Assembly (NCBI GenBank): GCA_963677595.1
Contig: OY782041.1
Coordinates: 224,001 to 288,000 of the forward strand
DNA: 64,000 nucleotides
Reading direction: 5' to 3'
From: Spirochaetia bacterium
Lineage (GTDB): Bacteria; Spirochaetota; Spirochaetia; CAKZLE01
Below the pieces are notes generated by a model, which was not told the origin of the DNA, searched no databases, and saw only the letters and a list, made by a program, of their open reading frames with translations. Positions 2,356 through 30,938 of this stretch are shown in pieces. Each line of letters begins with the position of its first letter. Position 1 is the stretch's first letter. A program made the translations under genes and the position numbers.

Positions 2356-2796
2356 TCACAGCTCCTTTCCGGTGACACGCTCGGCAGCCAGCTTCCAGAC
2401 CCGTACAGCCTCGACAGCTTCAGGAGTGAACTCCCAGGCCTCATCTGAGTAGTGGGCCATGATGCGGGACAACGCTTCCACCTTCCCCGTATAGCCTGTC
2501 ACCTCTGAGACCTGCCCGTACCCGATGACACTCCTTCCGGACATACCCCAGCCGCAGGGAGCTTTATCATGCGGCTGCAGCCTTACATCCTGCTCCATCT
2601 CGAAGCAGACGGTCCCCCCGCCCTCGAGGTAGGCGATCTTCCTGCCCTCACGTGCCGTGTGGAAATAGATATGCGACCCGTCGTACCCGTAGTTCAGCGG
2701 GATGATATACGGGAGGGATCCTGCAGAAACAGCGAGCCGCATGACCTCTGCCCCCCTGATCACCTCATCGATCCGTGCACGATCCCTGATCTCTTT
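2356..2796 (-). pseudogene. Pyridoxamine 5'-phosphate oxidase / NimA-like flavin-binding protein, 3' part, interrupted by IS110
   Basis: 'PYIIPLNYGYDGSHIYFHTAREGRKI...VCFE...SVIGYG' family motifs; no start codon on this side of the IS; joins in frame to 4374-4392. Confidence 0.88.
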
Positions 2797-2809
2797 ATTT
2801 GTCTGTAGA

Positions 2810-2815
2810 TGTCAA
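2810..2815 (-). promoter_or_regulatory. -35 box (TTGACA) of the IS110 circle-junction promoter
   Basis: Joining right end to left end gives TTGACA-17 nt-TAGTAT (-10 box at 4368-4373). Confidence 0.8.
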
Positions 2816-2930
2816 GGGGTATAAACAAGAAAGTTTTGGCAATTCAAATAGACACAATTCTCCGAGACCTTAAAAATAAGGACTTGCGTGGGGAGGTGGT
2901 TAGTGATAGGCTAAAACCGTTAGATTGGCT

Positions 2931-4100
2931 TTAGCTGGTTATTGAGCTCTTATCGGAATTAATCTGCCAGGATCGGGTTCCGACGAGAGCTTCAAGTTTA
3001 TAGTATTGCAGTTTCTTCAACAGATACTGTTCCCCGTCAGGCATCCGGTAGATGTCACCGTTCTTCAGCAGAGCGAATCCGATAGAGAGCATCTTATTAG
3101 CAATGGCAACTGATGCTTTCTGACCAAGCTTCCGTCGGCTCTCAAGACGCTGCCAGTACCGAGTAAGAGAACAATCTCTCCTAAAGCTCTTGATCCCCCA
3201 GGCTCCCTGCATGATGTGCCTCCTGATCGGCATACACCCGTGACGAGAGACCCCGAGCTGCTTATCGACCGTCCCAGATTGATCCTTCTTCGGGATGAGA
3301 CCGATATAGTTCCTCAGTTGGTTAGCAGAAGAGAATCGGTCTCCATTACCGAGGAAGGCAATGAGCGTTACAGCCGTGATGTCTCCGATGCCAGGGATCG
3401 AGAGCCAGGAAAGAGCTTCTCGTGGATGAGCGAGAATGATCTCCTTGAGCTTCTCATGAATACGTTCCATCTGCGACTCCAATGATTCAAGCTCTTCGAG
3501 CAGGAGCCCTGCACTGAATAGAGCTATCTCCTCGGCGAGTAGGGTCTCCACCCAGGCCCGTCGCTTGCGAGGATCCTTCAGATCCGATTTCTTCAGGTCA
3601 GGGAACCCCATTCCCGTGAATACCGCATGAAGCTTGTTGATGACCTTCGTACGATACTGAGCATAGGCGATGTGAAGTTTGACTACTGAGCGCTCAGCAG
3701 ATTCCTGTTCAGTCGGGATGGGAACCAGTACCCAGTTCTCAGGATGGGCATCCCGTGCATACTTAGCCAATTTTGCAGCATCTTGCCGATCTGTCTTGCA
3801 GATCGACTCGAAGATGATATGCAGTTTCATGGGGTTGAGTACATACACGTCTGCTTCGGTGTGCTTCAGCAGATACCGTGCGAGGTTGAAGGAAGATGTC
3901 CCTCCCTCCATAAAGATCGCATCTCCTGCTTTGAACCGTTCAGCGAGTCGCTGACGTCCTTGAGCATTCATCTTCTCGTTGAAGAAGTGATTCTTCATGA
4001 ACCCTTCTTCTGCTAGCAGCATACACCCAACCAGAGTCTTCTTGGAAAGATCCAAGCCGATGATCCTGGTTGCCGTCAATCGTAAAGGTCTGTCTATCAT
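2931..4100 (-). CDS. IS110-family transposase / DEDD bridge recombinase
   Basis: RuvC-like DEDD residues in 'IIGLDLSK', 'FMEGG', 'KTDRQDA'; C-terminal 'SIPGIGDITA...YIGLIPKKDQSGT' with the conserved Ser; GAGGAGG RBS. Confidence 0.96.
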   Translation of the reverse strand: MIDRPLRLTATRIIGLDLSKKTLVGCMLLAEEGFMKNHFFNEKMNAQGRQRLAERFKAGDAIFMEGGTSSFNLARYLLKHTEADVYVLNPMKLHIIFESICKTDRQDAAKLAKYARDAHPENWVLVPIPTEQESAERSVVKLHIAYAQYRTKVINKLHAVFTGMGFPDLKKSDLKDPRKRRAWVETLLAEEIALFSAGLLLEELESLESQMERIHEKLKEIILAHPREALSWLSIPGIGDITAVTLIAFLGNGDRFSSANQLRNYIGLIPKKDQSGTVDKQLGVSRHGCMPIRRHIMQGAWGIKSFRRDCSLTRYWQRLESRRKLGQKASVAIANKMLSIGFALLKNGDIYRMPDGEQYLLKKLQYYKLEALVGTRSWQINSDKSSITS

Positions 4101-4149
4101 GGCAGCCTCCTCAAAATAAAATTAACGGATAGTTGGGAAGCTTTATGAC

Positions 4150-4362
4150 AGGAAGTGCGTAGATGTCCTTCATTTTTATTATTGAGATCATTCCCGGGGA
4201 GAATTCCCCGGGAAGTCTCCAAGTAGTCTTCGATGACCGGTCAGTGTATCTTTCTCATTGAGGTATGTCTGGCAGTCCAGCATCCATCACAATAGATCAT
4301 TACACGATCACCGGTTCCCATTCTCCGTCAAGAATAGGATAGCATCTATGACTTCTCAACTA
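4150..4362 (-). ncRNA. Predicted IS110 bridge/seek RNA in the long upstream non-coding end
   Basis: Lies downstream of the junction promoter. The 5' and 3' ends pair (GAAGT/ACTTC, TAGATG/CATCTA, TCCT/AGGA). Two internal loops carry segments matching the target site and the donor junction. RNA ends are approximate. Confidence 0.8.
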
Positions 4363-4373
4363 CAGTCATACTA

Positions 4374-4392
4374 CTTTCTCTGCTCTTCTCAT
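4374..4392 (-). pseudogene. 5' fragment (MRRAEK) of the IS110-interrupted flavin-binding protein gene
   Basis: ATG AGA AGA GCA GAG AAA G| continues as |AG ATC AGG GAT at 2792; TATAAT lies 7 nt upstream of the ATG. Confidence 0.85.
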
Positions 4393-4666: not shown

Positions 4667-5491
4667 ATGGGTAAGCCTGTCCACAAATACATCAGCCTCC
4701 TCTTCGGGATCGCCGGCATCCTCAACTTCCTCTCCACCTTCTTCGGGACGGTGACCGACTGCCCCTTCTGCAGCGGCTATGAGCTCAGGTGGTGGAGCTA
4801 TCCCCTCCTCGGAGTCGGGATCTACTTCCTGTGGACCTACTTCTGCACACGTGAACGGGTAGTCCTGAGCCTGCAGGATAAGACCGTGACAGTCAACATG
4901 TCCGTGATCATCCAGTATTCACAGTTCGGGTTCATCTACCTGATCTCGATCTTCGTGGCGTTCCACCCGCTCCACAACAACTTCACGATGGAACTGCTCT
5001 TCCTCGCCCTGCTGCTCGGGCTGCGGTACCAGCTGATCAAGATCCGGGGGAGCATCTTCATGGGGGTCACCACCTCCATTGCCTTTGAGTTTGCTGCCTT
5101 CCAGAACGGCACACCCCTCGACGGGCTGTATGTGCTGATCTTCGCAGGAGCCATCATCTTCGTCCTGCTGCTCATCCACATGGACTTCCTCAAGATCGAC
5201 TCAAGCATGCATGAGCGGATCCTCCATGTGGAGACGCGCCTGAACCAGTACGAAAAGGAAACCCTCGACCCGGGGGACTTCCCGTTCACCCCCAGGGAAC
5301 TGGACGTCCTGAAGGCCCTCTGCCTGACGCACGGCTCCAACAGTGATATAGCTAGCGGTCTCGGGATCAAGGAACAGACGGTCAAGGGGCACCTGAAGAA
5401 CATCTTCGACAAGGCAGGGGTCGATGACCGACACCAGCTCGTCGACCTCTTCAGGCATGCCTTCATCATGGATGACGACCTTGACCATTAA
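4667..5491 (+). CDS. Membrane-anchored LuxR-type HTH regulator (paralog 1)
   Basis: Multiple N-terminal TM segments; C-terminal 'FTPRELDVL...SNSDIASGLGIKEQTVKGHLKNIFDKAGV'. Confidence 0.85.
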   Translation: MGKPVHKYISLLFGIAGILNFLSTFFGTVTDCPFCSGYELRWWSYPLLGVGIYFLWTYFCTRERVVLSLQDKTVTVNMSVIIQYSQFGFIYLISIFVAFHPLHNNFTMELLFLALLLGLRYQLIKIRGSIFMGVTTSIAFEFAAFQNGTPLDGLYVLIFAGAIIFVLLLIHMDFLKIDSSMHERILHVETRLNQYEKETLDPGDFPFTPRELDVLKALCLTHGSNSDIASGLGIKEQTVKGHLKNIFDKAGVDDRHQLVDLFRHAFIMDDDLDH

Positions 5492-5548: not shown

Positions 5549-6376
5549 ATGGAAGATGATCGATTCAAGACAGTCAGCCTGATCTACGGTATCATCGGTA
5601 TGCTCACCTGCATCATGCAGGTGGTCACGGTCATGACAGAGACGGACCTTGGCGATGAACACACACTGGCCTGGTGGTGGTACATGATCCTCATTATCGG
5701 GATCTTCTTCCTCTGGATGGCCTTCAAGAAACGGGGCACCTACTCCATCACCCTGTTGGGGAAGACCATCAAGATCAACCTCTTCCGCATCACGAAGGTT
5801 CTGCATTTCGTCGTGATGTATATCTTCTCCGTAGTGGAGATCAACGCTGACCATACGAGCCAGTACGGCATGATGATGCTGTTCATCTCCCTCATGATGG
5901 GGATCAAGTACCGGCTGATCCGAAAGCGGGGGATCATCATCTGCCTGATCATCTTCGCAGCCTCGCTCGAGACGGGTGCAGTCCAGGCAGGGTATCCCTT
6001 CCGGGCAGTCTACACCTTCATCTTCGCAGGGTTCTACTTCGGTATCCTGAGCGTCCTCTATACCGATGAACTGCGGAAATACTTCACCCTGGCAAAGAAC
6101 TTCCATGAGAAACTCCTATCGGTAGAGGAGAAGCTGAAGAAGTATGAGGGTCAGACCTTCGACCCGGAGGCCTTCCAGTTCACTCCCAGAGAGAGGGAGA
6201 TCCTGAGTATCCTCTGCACCACGCACGGCACCAACCAGGAGATCTCAGACCAGCTTGGGATCAAGGTCCAGACCGTGAAGACCCATATAAAGAACATCTT
6301 CGACAAGGCAGGGGTCGATGACCGGCATCAGTTGATCGATCTCTTCAAGCATTCCTACATCCAGGATGAGACGTAA
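5549..6376 (+). CDS. Membrane-anchored LuxR-type HTH regulator (paralog 2)
   Basis: Same architecture; 'FTPREREIL...TNQEISDQLGIKVQTVKTHIKNIFDKAGV'; AGGAGG RBS. Confidence 0.85.
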   Translation: MEDDRFKTVSLIYGIIGMLTCIMQVVTVMTETDLGDEHTLAWWWYMILIIGIFFLWMAFKKRGTYSITLLGKTIKINLFRITKVLHFVVMYIFSVVEINADHTSQYGMMMLFISLMMGIKYRLIRKRGIIICLIIFAASLETGAVQAGYPFRAVYTFIFAGFYFGILSVLYTDELRKYFTLAKNFHEKLLSVEEKLKKYEGQTFDPEAFQFTPREREILSILCTTHGTNQEISDQLGIKVQTVKTHIKNIFDKAGVDDRHQLIDLFKHSYIQDET

Positions 6377-28802: not shown

Positions 28803-29705
28803 TCAATCAGCCAGGGTATCCTGGAGTTCCCTGATGGCATCTTCACTCAATCCTGTGATATCAGCGATATCAGGGGGAGACATCCCCTTAGCCAACATTC
28901 GCTTTGCAATCGCTTTCTTTTCTTCCTCTACGATCGCCTTCTCCCGAGCCAGGGCATCCTGTACTGCCAGCCTTCGCTGTTCCTTGTGGTACCTGCTCAC
29001 ATCCTCATCGCTTATGTGTATCATCTGATCTACCGCCTTGTCGAAGATCGCGTTCCGTTGACAGAGTTCCTCGAGCTGTGTCTCATCCTCCAGCCTGAAG
29101 AATGTCGTCCACTGATCCCTCAGGCTCTCGGGATCATCATGGTCCATACGCTTAAGCTCCACGAAGACCATCTCCATGAGATCCGTGAACTCTTCTTTCG
29201 TCTCCCGGTCATGGAAGGTCATGTGCCGTATATAGGACCTGGTCGTATCCGGCTTCTCTTCGTAGTTCTCTCCGTCCTTATCTTCTTCCGTCTCTATCAG
29301 ATTATAGCACAGAAAATTGAGAGTTATAGCCTTGCCGAAATCGGCAGGCCGCTTTCGGCAGTCTCCCTTCTTGATCTGGCTTGAGTAGAGGCGGGCAAGG
29401 TAATGCAGGCTGCGGGGCATGATGTCAAACTCATTACGGACCTGGACCTCGACGTTGATATGCTCGTTGTTCGAGGTGAGGACCCGCAGGTCGAGGCGGA
29501 AGAGCTTGTCATCGGGGTATTCCCGCTCTATTTCCGTGGTCATGATCGTGATGTCCTCCGGGCTCTCCGCGGAGATGTCGAGGTAGGCGGTGAGCAGGGA
29601 GAGCAGCAGGTCCTTGTTCTCCTCCTTGGTGAAGATCGCCTTGAAGACGATGTCACTGGTAAGCGGCAGCAAGGTGCTGTTCCCGTACTTGATCTCTTTA
29701 AACAT
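28803..29705 (-). CDS. Rpn-family recombination-promoting nuclease (PD-(D/E)XK nuclease / putative transposase)
   Basis: 'SDIVFKAIF', 'RLDLRV...INVEVQ', 'RSLHYLARLYSSQIKKG', 'FVELKR', C-terminal 'IAKRMLAKGM..DIADITGLS'. Confidence 0.92.
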   Translation of the reverse strand: MFKEIKYGNSTLLPLTSDIVFKAIFTKEENKDLLLSLLTAYLDISAESPEDITIMTTEIEREYPDDKLFRLDLRVLTSNNEHINVEVQVRNEFDIMPRSLHYLARLYSSQIKKGDCRKRPADFGKAITLNFLCYNLIETEEDKDGENYEEKPDTTRSYIRHMTFHDRETKEEFTDLMEMVFVELKRMDHDDPESLRDQWTTFFRLEDETQLEELCQRNAIFDKAVDQMIHISDEDVSRYHKEQRRLAVQDALAREKAIVEEEKKAIAKRMLAKGMSPPDIADITGLSEDAIRELQDTLAD

Positions 29706-29790
29706 GCGGGTTCCTCCTGTGTTCGTATAGCTACTACAAACAGGATTTAGTTAGATTTGATTTAAAAAATGCTGCGATCGATGAAAAAAA

Positions 29791-29963
29791 TATGACTGTA
29801 GTTGAGAAGTCACAGATGCTATCCTATTCTTGACGGAGAATGGGAACCGGTGATCGGATAATACTCCTTTGTGACGGATGCTGAACTTTCAGACATACCT
29901 CAATCAAAAAGATACACTGCCCGATCATTGTAGACTACTTGGAGACTTCCCGGGGAATTCTCC
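29791..29963 (+). repeat. Orphan copy of the IS110 left end / bridge RNA, no recombinase attached
   Basis: Gapless 156/173-nt match to the reverse complement of 4198-4370. Confidence 0.92.
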
Positions 29964-30035
29964 TGACAGTCTTACTGCGGCTGGACGATTCCGGCATCCG
30001 ACCAGTTGAACAAACCTACCGTTCCGGTATAATCC

Positions 30036-30938
30036 ATGGGTATGGAACAGATTCTCGGACAGGCCCTGGCACTGGTCATAGCAGTATGCTGGGCACAGAA
30101 CTCCCTCGTCTTCTCATATACCGGCGGCAGGATCGGAGCGAACACCACAGCCCATGTCAGGCTGTGGATTGCGCTGCCGCTCATCCTTGCCGTCCACAGG
30201 ATCTGGCTTGGCTCCTGGTTACCGCAGGGATACGGATTGGAGACCTGGCTCCCCCTCGGGCTCTCCGGGGTACTTGGCTTCTTCATAGCGGACATCCTGA
30301 TCTTCCAGTCCTACGTCCTCCTCGGCCCGAGGGAGACCCTCGTGATCCTGACGACATCGCCCATCATCATCGCTCTCCTCTCTGCGGCATTCCTGCAGGA
30401 GGCATTATCCCGGATGCAGGTCTTCGGGATCCTGACGACGGTGGCAGGGGTCATGTGGGTAGTACATACGGAGACGGAGAGACGCAGGAAGGAGCAGCGG
30501 CACAGCCTCAAGGGCATCCTGGCGGCACTCGGCGGGTCAGTCACCCAGGCAGCGGCCATGGTCCTCTCACGGGCAGGGATGGATGAAGGGATCCATCCGC
30601 TCTCCGCTACGGTGATCAGGATAAGCTTCGGGTTCATCGGGCTTGTGGTGATGGTGATCCTGCAGGGAAGGTTCATCGATGACTTCAGGAAAGCCGGATC
30701 TGTGAGGATCCTCCTCCTGATCACGGCAGCCGTGGCTGCAGGTCCCATCATAGGCATCAGCCTCACCCTCTATGCCATAACCCTCGCCCCGGTGGGAGTC
30801 GTGACCGCGATCAGCCAGATCAGCCCGATCCTCCTGCTTCCCGTCGAACGGTACGCCTTCGGGAAGAGGATCGGCCTCAGTACCCTTGCGGGCACGGCCG
30901 TCGCGATCTCAGGCACGATTATCCTGATCGCAGCCTGA
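30036..30938 (+). CDS. DMT/EamA-family transporter
   Basis: Two EamA-like repeats, about 10 TM segments; start may be 30042. Confidence 0.88.
   Translation: MGMEQILGQALALVIAVCWAQNSLVFSYTGGRIGANTTAHVRLWIALPLILAVHRIWLGSWLPQGYGLETWLPLGLSGVLGFFIADILIFQSYVLLGPRETLVILTTSPIIIALLSAAFLQEALSRMQVFGILTTVAGVMWVVHTETERRRKEQRHSLKGILAALGGSVTQAAAMVLSRAGMDEGIHPLSATVIRISFGFIGLVVMVILQGRFIDDFRKAGSVRILLLITAAVAAGPIIGISLTLYAITLAPVGVVTAISQISPILLLPVERYAFGKRIGLSTLAGTAVAISGTIILIAA

Follow-up and report, generated by a model that had tools for sequence, protein, structure and literature searches.

An IS110 left-end fragment at positions 29791-29963 on the plus strand of the window, which is the whole 64,000-nt stretch that we analysed, is most likely inert, a remnant left by an older sister of the five IS110 copies resident in the same genome (G000). 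This fragment, here called the orphan, has the left-end anatomy listed below, sits in a clean insertion, has lost its promoter and carries broken base pairs. A sequence-only reading had offered three explanations, namely a stand-alone RNA that redirects the recombinase, a decoy or regulator, or the remnant of a sibling IS, and the last of these is the one that our results support. The features of the window used in the analysis are:

2794..4376, minus strand: full IS110 copy, with core AA at both ends and the bridge RNA in its left end
2931..4100, minus strand: IS110 RNA-guided transposase, 389 aa (PF01548, PF02371 and NF033542 above cut-off)
28803..29705, minus strand: Rpn/PDDEXK_2 gene, whose repeated leader received the fragment
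29782..29788, plus strand: left flank TGAAAAA, which half-matches guide 2 in the orphan and in the resident IS
29789..29963, plus strand: inserted IS110 left-end fragment (insert of 172-173 nt, 29789/29790-29961)
29802..29830, plus strand: weak sigma70-like match TTGAGA-17-TATTCT (9/12), both hexamers also present in the full copies
29822..29845, plus strand: predicted 5' stem-loop of the bridge RNA, with no difference from the resident IS
29846..29930, plus strand: predicted target-binding loop module, its consensus closing helices partly broken
29857..29860, plus strand: 5' strand of the guide-proximal helix, which pairs with 29913-29916 in the family
29862..29870, plus strand: target guide 1, TACTCCTTT, which would pair with the core and downstream flank and predicts AA-AGGAGTA
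29873..29901, plus strand: distal stem-loop of the target loop, intact
29904..29910, plus strand: target guide 2, TCAAAAA, in the same sense as the upstream flank and core
29934..29940, plus strand: first donor guide ACTACTT, unchanged, complementary to the IS left terminus AAGTAGT
29941..29963, plus strand: half of the donor-loop hairpin, homology stopping just past the apex of a near-perfect palindrome
29962..29967, plus strand: right flank CCTGAC, joined to the left flank where paralogous sites are empty
30036..30938, plus strand: downstream EamA-family transporter gene, with its own promoter-like site at 30006-30033

The transposases of the full copies combine a DEDD/RuvC with a Tnp domain, as expected of the IS110 family, and the PDB matches of the recombinase are ISCro4 and IS621. 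Counting orphan against full copies had been proposed in the sequence-only reading: the genome holds one orphan, five full copies (96-100% identical, two of the five being identical over 1586 nt) and one distant IS110 (46% protein identity); a right end of this IS110 on its own was not found in it. The resident elements share with IS621 of the IS110 group, as presented in the accessible text of two papers (PMC11208160, PMC11208158), a left-end RNA with a 5' stem-loop, target loop and donor loop, a DEDD and Tnp recombinase, and a junction promoter of the kind described for IS621 (PMC11208160). Joining the two IS ends in a circle gives TTGACA-17-TAGTAT, and only in the circle do the -35 TTGACA (2810-2815) and -10 TAGTAT (4368-4373) come together. 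Compared with IS621 as described there, the parent family places the complementary guide first, as read along the transposase strand, and has the core AA (TT on the opposite strand), while the orphan lacks the recombinase, half of the donor loop and the promoter. The bridge RNA of the element at 2794-4376 itself lies in a long left end, as in the IS110 group. The element also shows a subterminal inverted repeat that is imperfect (14/19, by eye), and, relative to the transposase strand, its guides come in the reverse of the IS621 order. Decay is frequent in the family, with an early stop in six of the seven outside copies that have a readable ORF start.

To describe the parent RNA we aligned 14 left ends, comprising the orphan and 13 other elements. 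The alignment points to a 5' stem-loop, a target loop with two closing helices and a distal hairpin, and a donor loop. The consensus structure has 31 pairs, with 93% of cells paired compared with 37-49% when the structure is slid, and two-sided changes at 10 of the 31 counted pairs; these controls lean in the structure's favour because it was derived from the same sequences. Guide 1 occupies positions 72-80 and is complementary to the core and downstream flank, the core being AA, and guide 2 occupies positions 114-120 in the sense of the upstream flank and core. Against their own sites the full copies pair at 6-7/7 upstream and 6-8/9 downstream positions. All five score best with their own guides, which match their own flanks in 5/5 cases, one with a 1-nt shift; that copy is G000:C1:1662865, where the downstream flank matches guide 1 at 8/9 only when shifted. 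By eye, the outside siblings L008, L012 and L013 also follow this register.

Aligned to the reverse complement of 4198-4370, the orphan is a gapless copy with 156 of 173 positions identical. One of its 17 differences lies at position 23 and 16 lie at positions 67-141, none falling in positions 142-173, just as the sequence-only reading had counted. This pair of left ends is the longest inverted repeat of the window. The window also contains a 266-nt direct repeat, 71% identical, in two adjacent genes (5210-5475 and 6104-6369), the first of which is a LuxR-type regulator. Other parts of the earlier description held as well. Guide 1 changes from TGATCTATT in the resident to TACTCCTTT in the orphan and guide 2 from TGAGAAA to TCAAAAA, the hairpin between them is changed, and the first donor guide is untouched. 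Homology ends at 29963, inside the donor-loop hairpin and before the second donor guide, which is absent from the orphan, as is the transposase gene. A functional bridge RNA has a complete two-guide donor-binding loop, and the orphan has none; its leftover half is predicted to refold into a small hairpin. A 151-nt record in run X2 equals 29840-29990 without a difference, which argues against an assembly artefact, with the limits that it extends only 29 nt past the junction and could originate in the source study.

The register explains the flanks of the five full copies and of outside siblings, and the orphan therefore specifies TCAAAAAAGGAGTA, the Shine-Dalgarno-like target that had been proposed for it. 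None of the five full copies occupies an orphan-type (TCAAAAAAGGAG-type) site, and four genomic sites with a 13/14 Watson-Crick match to the orphan target, at G000:C1:391410, 1749025, 330777 and 3128119, are all without an IS. Distinct guides are common in these elements: the 13 other aligned elements carry 10 distinct guide pairs, and guide 2 of a full sibling in run X4 is a single letter away from the orphan's. The full copy at G000:C1:145128 (L007) has guides TACGTTTTT and GAGAAAA that fit its own flanks, and over the 173 nt compared its departures from the main type fall at 9 of the 16 guide positions and at none of the 157 others. With 10 guide pairs in 13 elements and such a copy in the same genome, "reprogrammed", the word first applied to the orphan, means only "from another sibling". 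To judge from these sequences, guide differences between siblings appear normal in this IS110 family.

We then considered how much of the RNA structure the orphan retains. That structure was kept, as first proposed, holds for the stem-loop at the 5' end as well as for the distal hairpin and fails elsewhere, since the orphan breaks four consensus pairs. Three of them (T67-A126, G68-C125 and T61-R130) are kept by all 13 other aligned elements and broken in the orphan only; the fourth, C57-G134, is also broken in L012, L015 and L016. In the guide-proximal helix two of four pairs are broken, again in the orphan only. The A94-U99 pair, once taken as a compensatory change in the orphan, also occurs in the outside siblings L002 and L011 and is probably an older state rather than orphan-specific compensation. 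At positions 94, 99 and 117 the orphan agrees with outside siblings, which points towards an older branch. An alternative 10-bp closing helix (29848-29857/29921-29930) is predicted for the orphan target loop, and just 2.5% of random 7-change sets reach it. Otherwise the changes look close to random: four of the seven private scaffold changes fall in columns invariant in the 13 others (2.6 expected, P = 0.23), the four broken pairs compare with 2.9 expected (P = 0.32), and 3000 random change sets bracket the fold energy (P = 0.18). With invariant-column hits and broken pairs so near random expectation, we see no sign of purifying selection. A copy in the relative G001, likewise without a transposase, also has four private changes at invariant columns.

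The changes are nevertheless unevenly distributed. Outside the guides, 10 of 71 scaffold positions differ in the target loop against 1 of 86 elsewhere (Fisher p = 0.0017), or p = 0.0078 against the closer resident variant. Three of the ten loop changes (94, 98 and 99) occur in other copies or siblings; among the private changes, 7/8 are in the target loop (p = 0.016). Such clustering was absent from all 12 other comparisons (p at least 0.18). Simple decay does not explain it.

The junction promoter is absent from the orphan, which has no right end and neither hexamer intact: at the position of the -10 TAGTAT it reads AAATAT, and there is no -35 at that spacing. We found no terminator for the orphan on the plus strand. 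At the left junction one or two A replace the terminal GTAG present in 5/5 full copies, a replacement that removes the -10 box and the donor half-site, so that the orphan starts 4 nt inside the left terminus and ends inside the donor-loop hairpin. The right junction lies just past the palindrome apex, with the CC at 29962-29963 compatible with both IS and flank. The core AA is not repeated there, and the right end is therefore not a clean recombinase product.

The Rpn gene with the orphan in its leader has four close paralogues in G000, two of which (at G000:C1:1177081 and 2986192) preserve empty sites, GAAAAA/CCTGAC and GAAGAA/CCTGAC; the other two diverge before the site. The empty form, with 6 A, also occurs in runs X3, X4 and X5, and a similar joint in X1. 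From these empty sites, which are paralogous and not proven orthologous, the orphan is an insert of 172-173 nt with no flank lost or duplicated. The five related Rpn/PDDEXK_2 genes (window 28803-29790 and G000:C1:1075931, 1177081, 1991291 and 2986192; 66-81% identical to that of the window) are dispersed and have a common leader that ends abruptly, which suggests a mobile or duplicated cassette; three further, more distant paralogues are also present in G000. Run X1, a strain ~98-99% identical, contains resident-type alleles only, with an empty-type joint upstream of eamA, although graph cleaning could have removed a low-depth variant. In runs X3 and X4, eamA is joined to other DNA at 29963. 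A contig of X1, at window position 29847, leaves the IS left end at ~29843-29847 for unrelated DNA, perhaps by another insertion into the element; the loose-end motif from this run was not found in G000.

The orphan's own site matches its guide 2 only and not its guide 1. The left flank agrees with guide 2 of the orphan at 6/7 positions, the downstream flank agrees with guide 1 at only 3-4/9 with the core included, and the right flank CCTGAC matched no guide 1 that we tested. The match of the upstream flank to the orphan's own guide (7/8 as first counted) had been taken to fit a remnant. It is not diagnostic, since this A-rich flank pairs with the resident guide too (6 Watson-Crick and 1 wobble of 7).

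We next looked for the orphan and its parent in other genomes. A covariance model built without the orphan gave seven matches in the genome (the five full copies, the orphan at 96 bits and the divergent IS110) and none in 150 other phylum genomes under strict filters. With one conserved exact pattern, genome, metagenome and viral databases returned 3, 7 and 0 matches, respectively. Seven of these ten run into a transposase, while L010 and L013 end at contig ends, the edge of L013 falling at the same hairpin as the orphan's end. L009, identical in sequence to L002 and counted once, keeps the whole RNA and loses the gene after ~37 codons. L002 (G001:C4:20221) is the sole copy found in G001, with a complete bridge RNA and a transposase of only ~37 codons, and this query found no full transposase there. 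A full IS elsewhere with the orphan's guides, which would have made it a truncated sibling of a known element, was not found by this pattern search, and a second orphan of this shape was found neither in its own genome nor in 60 relatives, the 150 phylum genomes or the ten pattern matches; among the relatives only the different remnant of G001 appeared. For 29600-30100, Rfam returned nothing with E up to 1. At L011:1109-1216 (IS strand) we observed a solitary IS right end, 80% identical, ~950 nt upstream of a copy that is full yet broken. Absence from syntenic loci of relatives had been named as a mark of an inert fragment, and all four relatives with the gene (G001-G004, 55-66% protein identity) have neither a fragment at eamA nor an Rpn gene nearby. 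These being distant relatives, the absence shows recent origin and not lack of function.

The reading that first drew attention to the orphan is that it encodes a stand-alone target-loop RNA, which would load the resident recombinase, pair with a donor loop in trans and redirect insertions to Shine-Dalgarno-like sites. There is precedent for its separate steps: according to the accessible text of the respective papers, two RNA molecules supply the target and donor loops of one complex and loops kept apart are active in vitro (PMC11208158), bridge RNA acts in trans (PMC11208160), and a target-loop-only RNA is the main species of CazIS110 and supports one transfer step (10.1101/2025.10.25.684509). 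The orphan itself retains the 5' stem-loop, the distal hairpin, a weak internal promoter match and a covariance-model score of 96 bits. Even so, we hold this reading to be very unlikely. No full copy has landed at an orphan-type site, even though four near-perfect ones stand empty; five copies are a small sample, so redirection may still occur rarely. The guide-proximal helix, invariant in the family, is broken in the orphan alone, there is no junction promoter and no plus-strand terminator, and the locus is a single copy, missing from the relatives, from their eamA loci and from the phylum genomes. In the literature searched, with most subscription papers and preprint supplements outside its coverage, we found no natural stand-alone target-loop locus. 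CazIS110-1 comes closest, in that its RNA also has a target loop without a working donor loop, but as far as its accessible text describes it, that RNA is transcribed, in a shorter form, from an intact element and carries that element's own guides, while the orphan is a separate locus with other guides.

A match to a host gene raises two further alternatives. Orphan positions 68-87 are the reverse complement, at 19/20 with G-T as the odd pair, of G000:C1:355367-355386, in a gene whose motifs suggest that it is glutamine synthetase III-like. This gene (G000:C1:353821-355983) is split by an in-frame stop near 354754-354756 in this assembly. The match covers six of the orphan's changes (68, 73, 74, 77, 78 and 85), and it was equalled by 0/400 random guides, 3/3000 shuffled flanks and, across guide 1, 3/600 simulated variants. 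Together with the confinement of changes to the target loop, this would fit a snapshot of natural guide rewriting, either by local, partly templated mutation (68-87 from the glutamine synthetase gene) or by a module swap, of which the orphan would be a dead surviving copy. We regard this as highly improbable. The match was found post hoc (p about 0.005-0.06), its BLAST E-value is 0.063, and 35/600 simulated variants match equally well somewhere in the loop. In register, guide 2 fits the glutamine synthetase site at just 3/7; neither position 67 nor the changes at 130-141 are accounted for, and the three control guide regions show nothing similar (resident guides reach 16/20 at best; G001 has no match within 3 mismatches). 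A co-opted function is no more credible, be it a decoy that soaks up recombinase or an antisense RNA acting on glutamine synthetase mRNA or ribosome-binding sites through the opened guide-1 loop. The broken helix does leave much of 68-77 single-stranded in the predicted fold, the 20 nt can pair with the gene's sense strand, and guide 1 is anti-Shine-Dalgarno-like. Conversely, the orphan has no strong promoter or terminator and is lineage-restricted, the pairing would fall mid-gene and downstream of the in-frame stop, and five full copies are present, with transposition that looks recent and unsuppressed, given the two identical copies. Very doubtful, too, is the combined proposal of a separately encoded target-loop-only RNA that retargets the resident recombinase in trans with a guide copied (20 nt) from a host gene. 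The complementarity to glutamine synthetase stands, beside the clustering in the target loop, as an unexplained lead.

For the remnant of a sister element, the following course of events seems plausible. The sister would have carried its own guides, aimed at TCAAAAAAGGAGTA, as siblings of this family normally do. The recombinase would have started a one-ended event, either an insertion that stayed partial, at a site with a half-match, or a full copy's aborted excision or deletion, two routes that the sequence cannot separate. Host repair may have finished the event at the 2-nt CC microhomology at the palindrome apex, after which GTAG would have been lost at the terminus and unselected changes gathered. 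The resulting orphan would probably make little RNA and guide no recombination. Half-match insertion has been reported (10.64898/2026.08.31.748434, accessible text), and partial IS110 circles are described, in the accessible text of a second preprint (10.64898/2026.08.14.744561), as reusing termini and reintegrating, with empty loci. The reintegrated fragments of that preprint likewise start within 5 bp of a terminus, have an internal, non-donor-like end and an empty form of the site; the orphan differs from them as described in being a single copy with other guides and in not being >99% identical to a resident parent. Neither a partial circle, which contigs would not show, nor the same fragment at an independent site was seen. 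Partial reintegrated IS110 fragments are thus already reported, and the orphan is most likely of that known kind.

Three other origins were considered and rejected. A retro-copy of the RNA is inconsistent with the DNA upstream of the predicted start site that the orphan includes. Quasi-palindrome correction, judged by eye, would explain positions 67 and 134 but not 139. A MITE resembling MITEPpu9 does not fit a single copy without a right end: the ssr9/MITEPpu9 module of ISPpu9 is, like the orphan, a transposase-free RNA-bearing module apart from a related IS110, but in the accessible text of its description (PMC12288879) it has both ends, circles and eight copies, compared with one damaged end and one copy here.

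As a remnant, the orphan matters little in itself, being one more example of a partial IS110 fragment. Were the combined split-guide proposal true, it would be the first natural split-guide IS110 system in the literature searched and a direct trace of IS110 guide reprogramming; it would mean that split bridge RNAs are used in nature by cells or elements, and would offer a handle on the origin of new guides. The orphan also provides a natural test of whether recombinase binding needs the guide-proximal helix. Guide retargeting in nature is plainly on view in this genome, where a single closely related IS group carries three guide sets.
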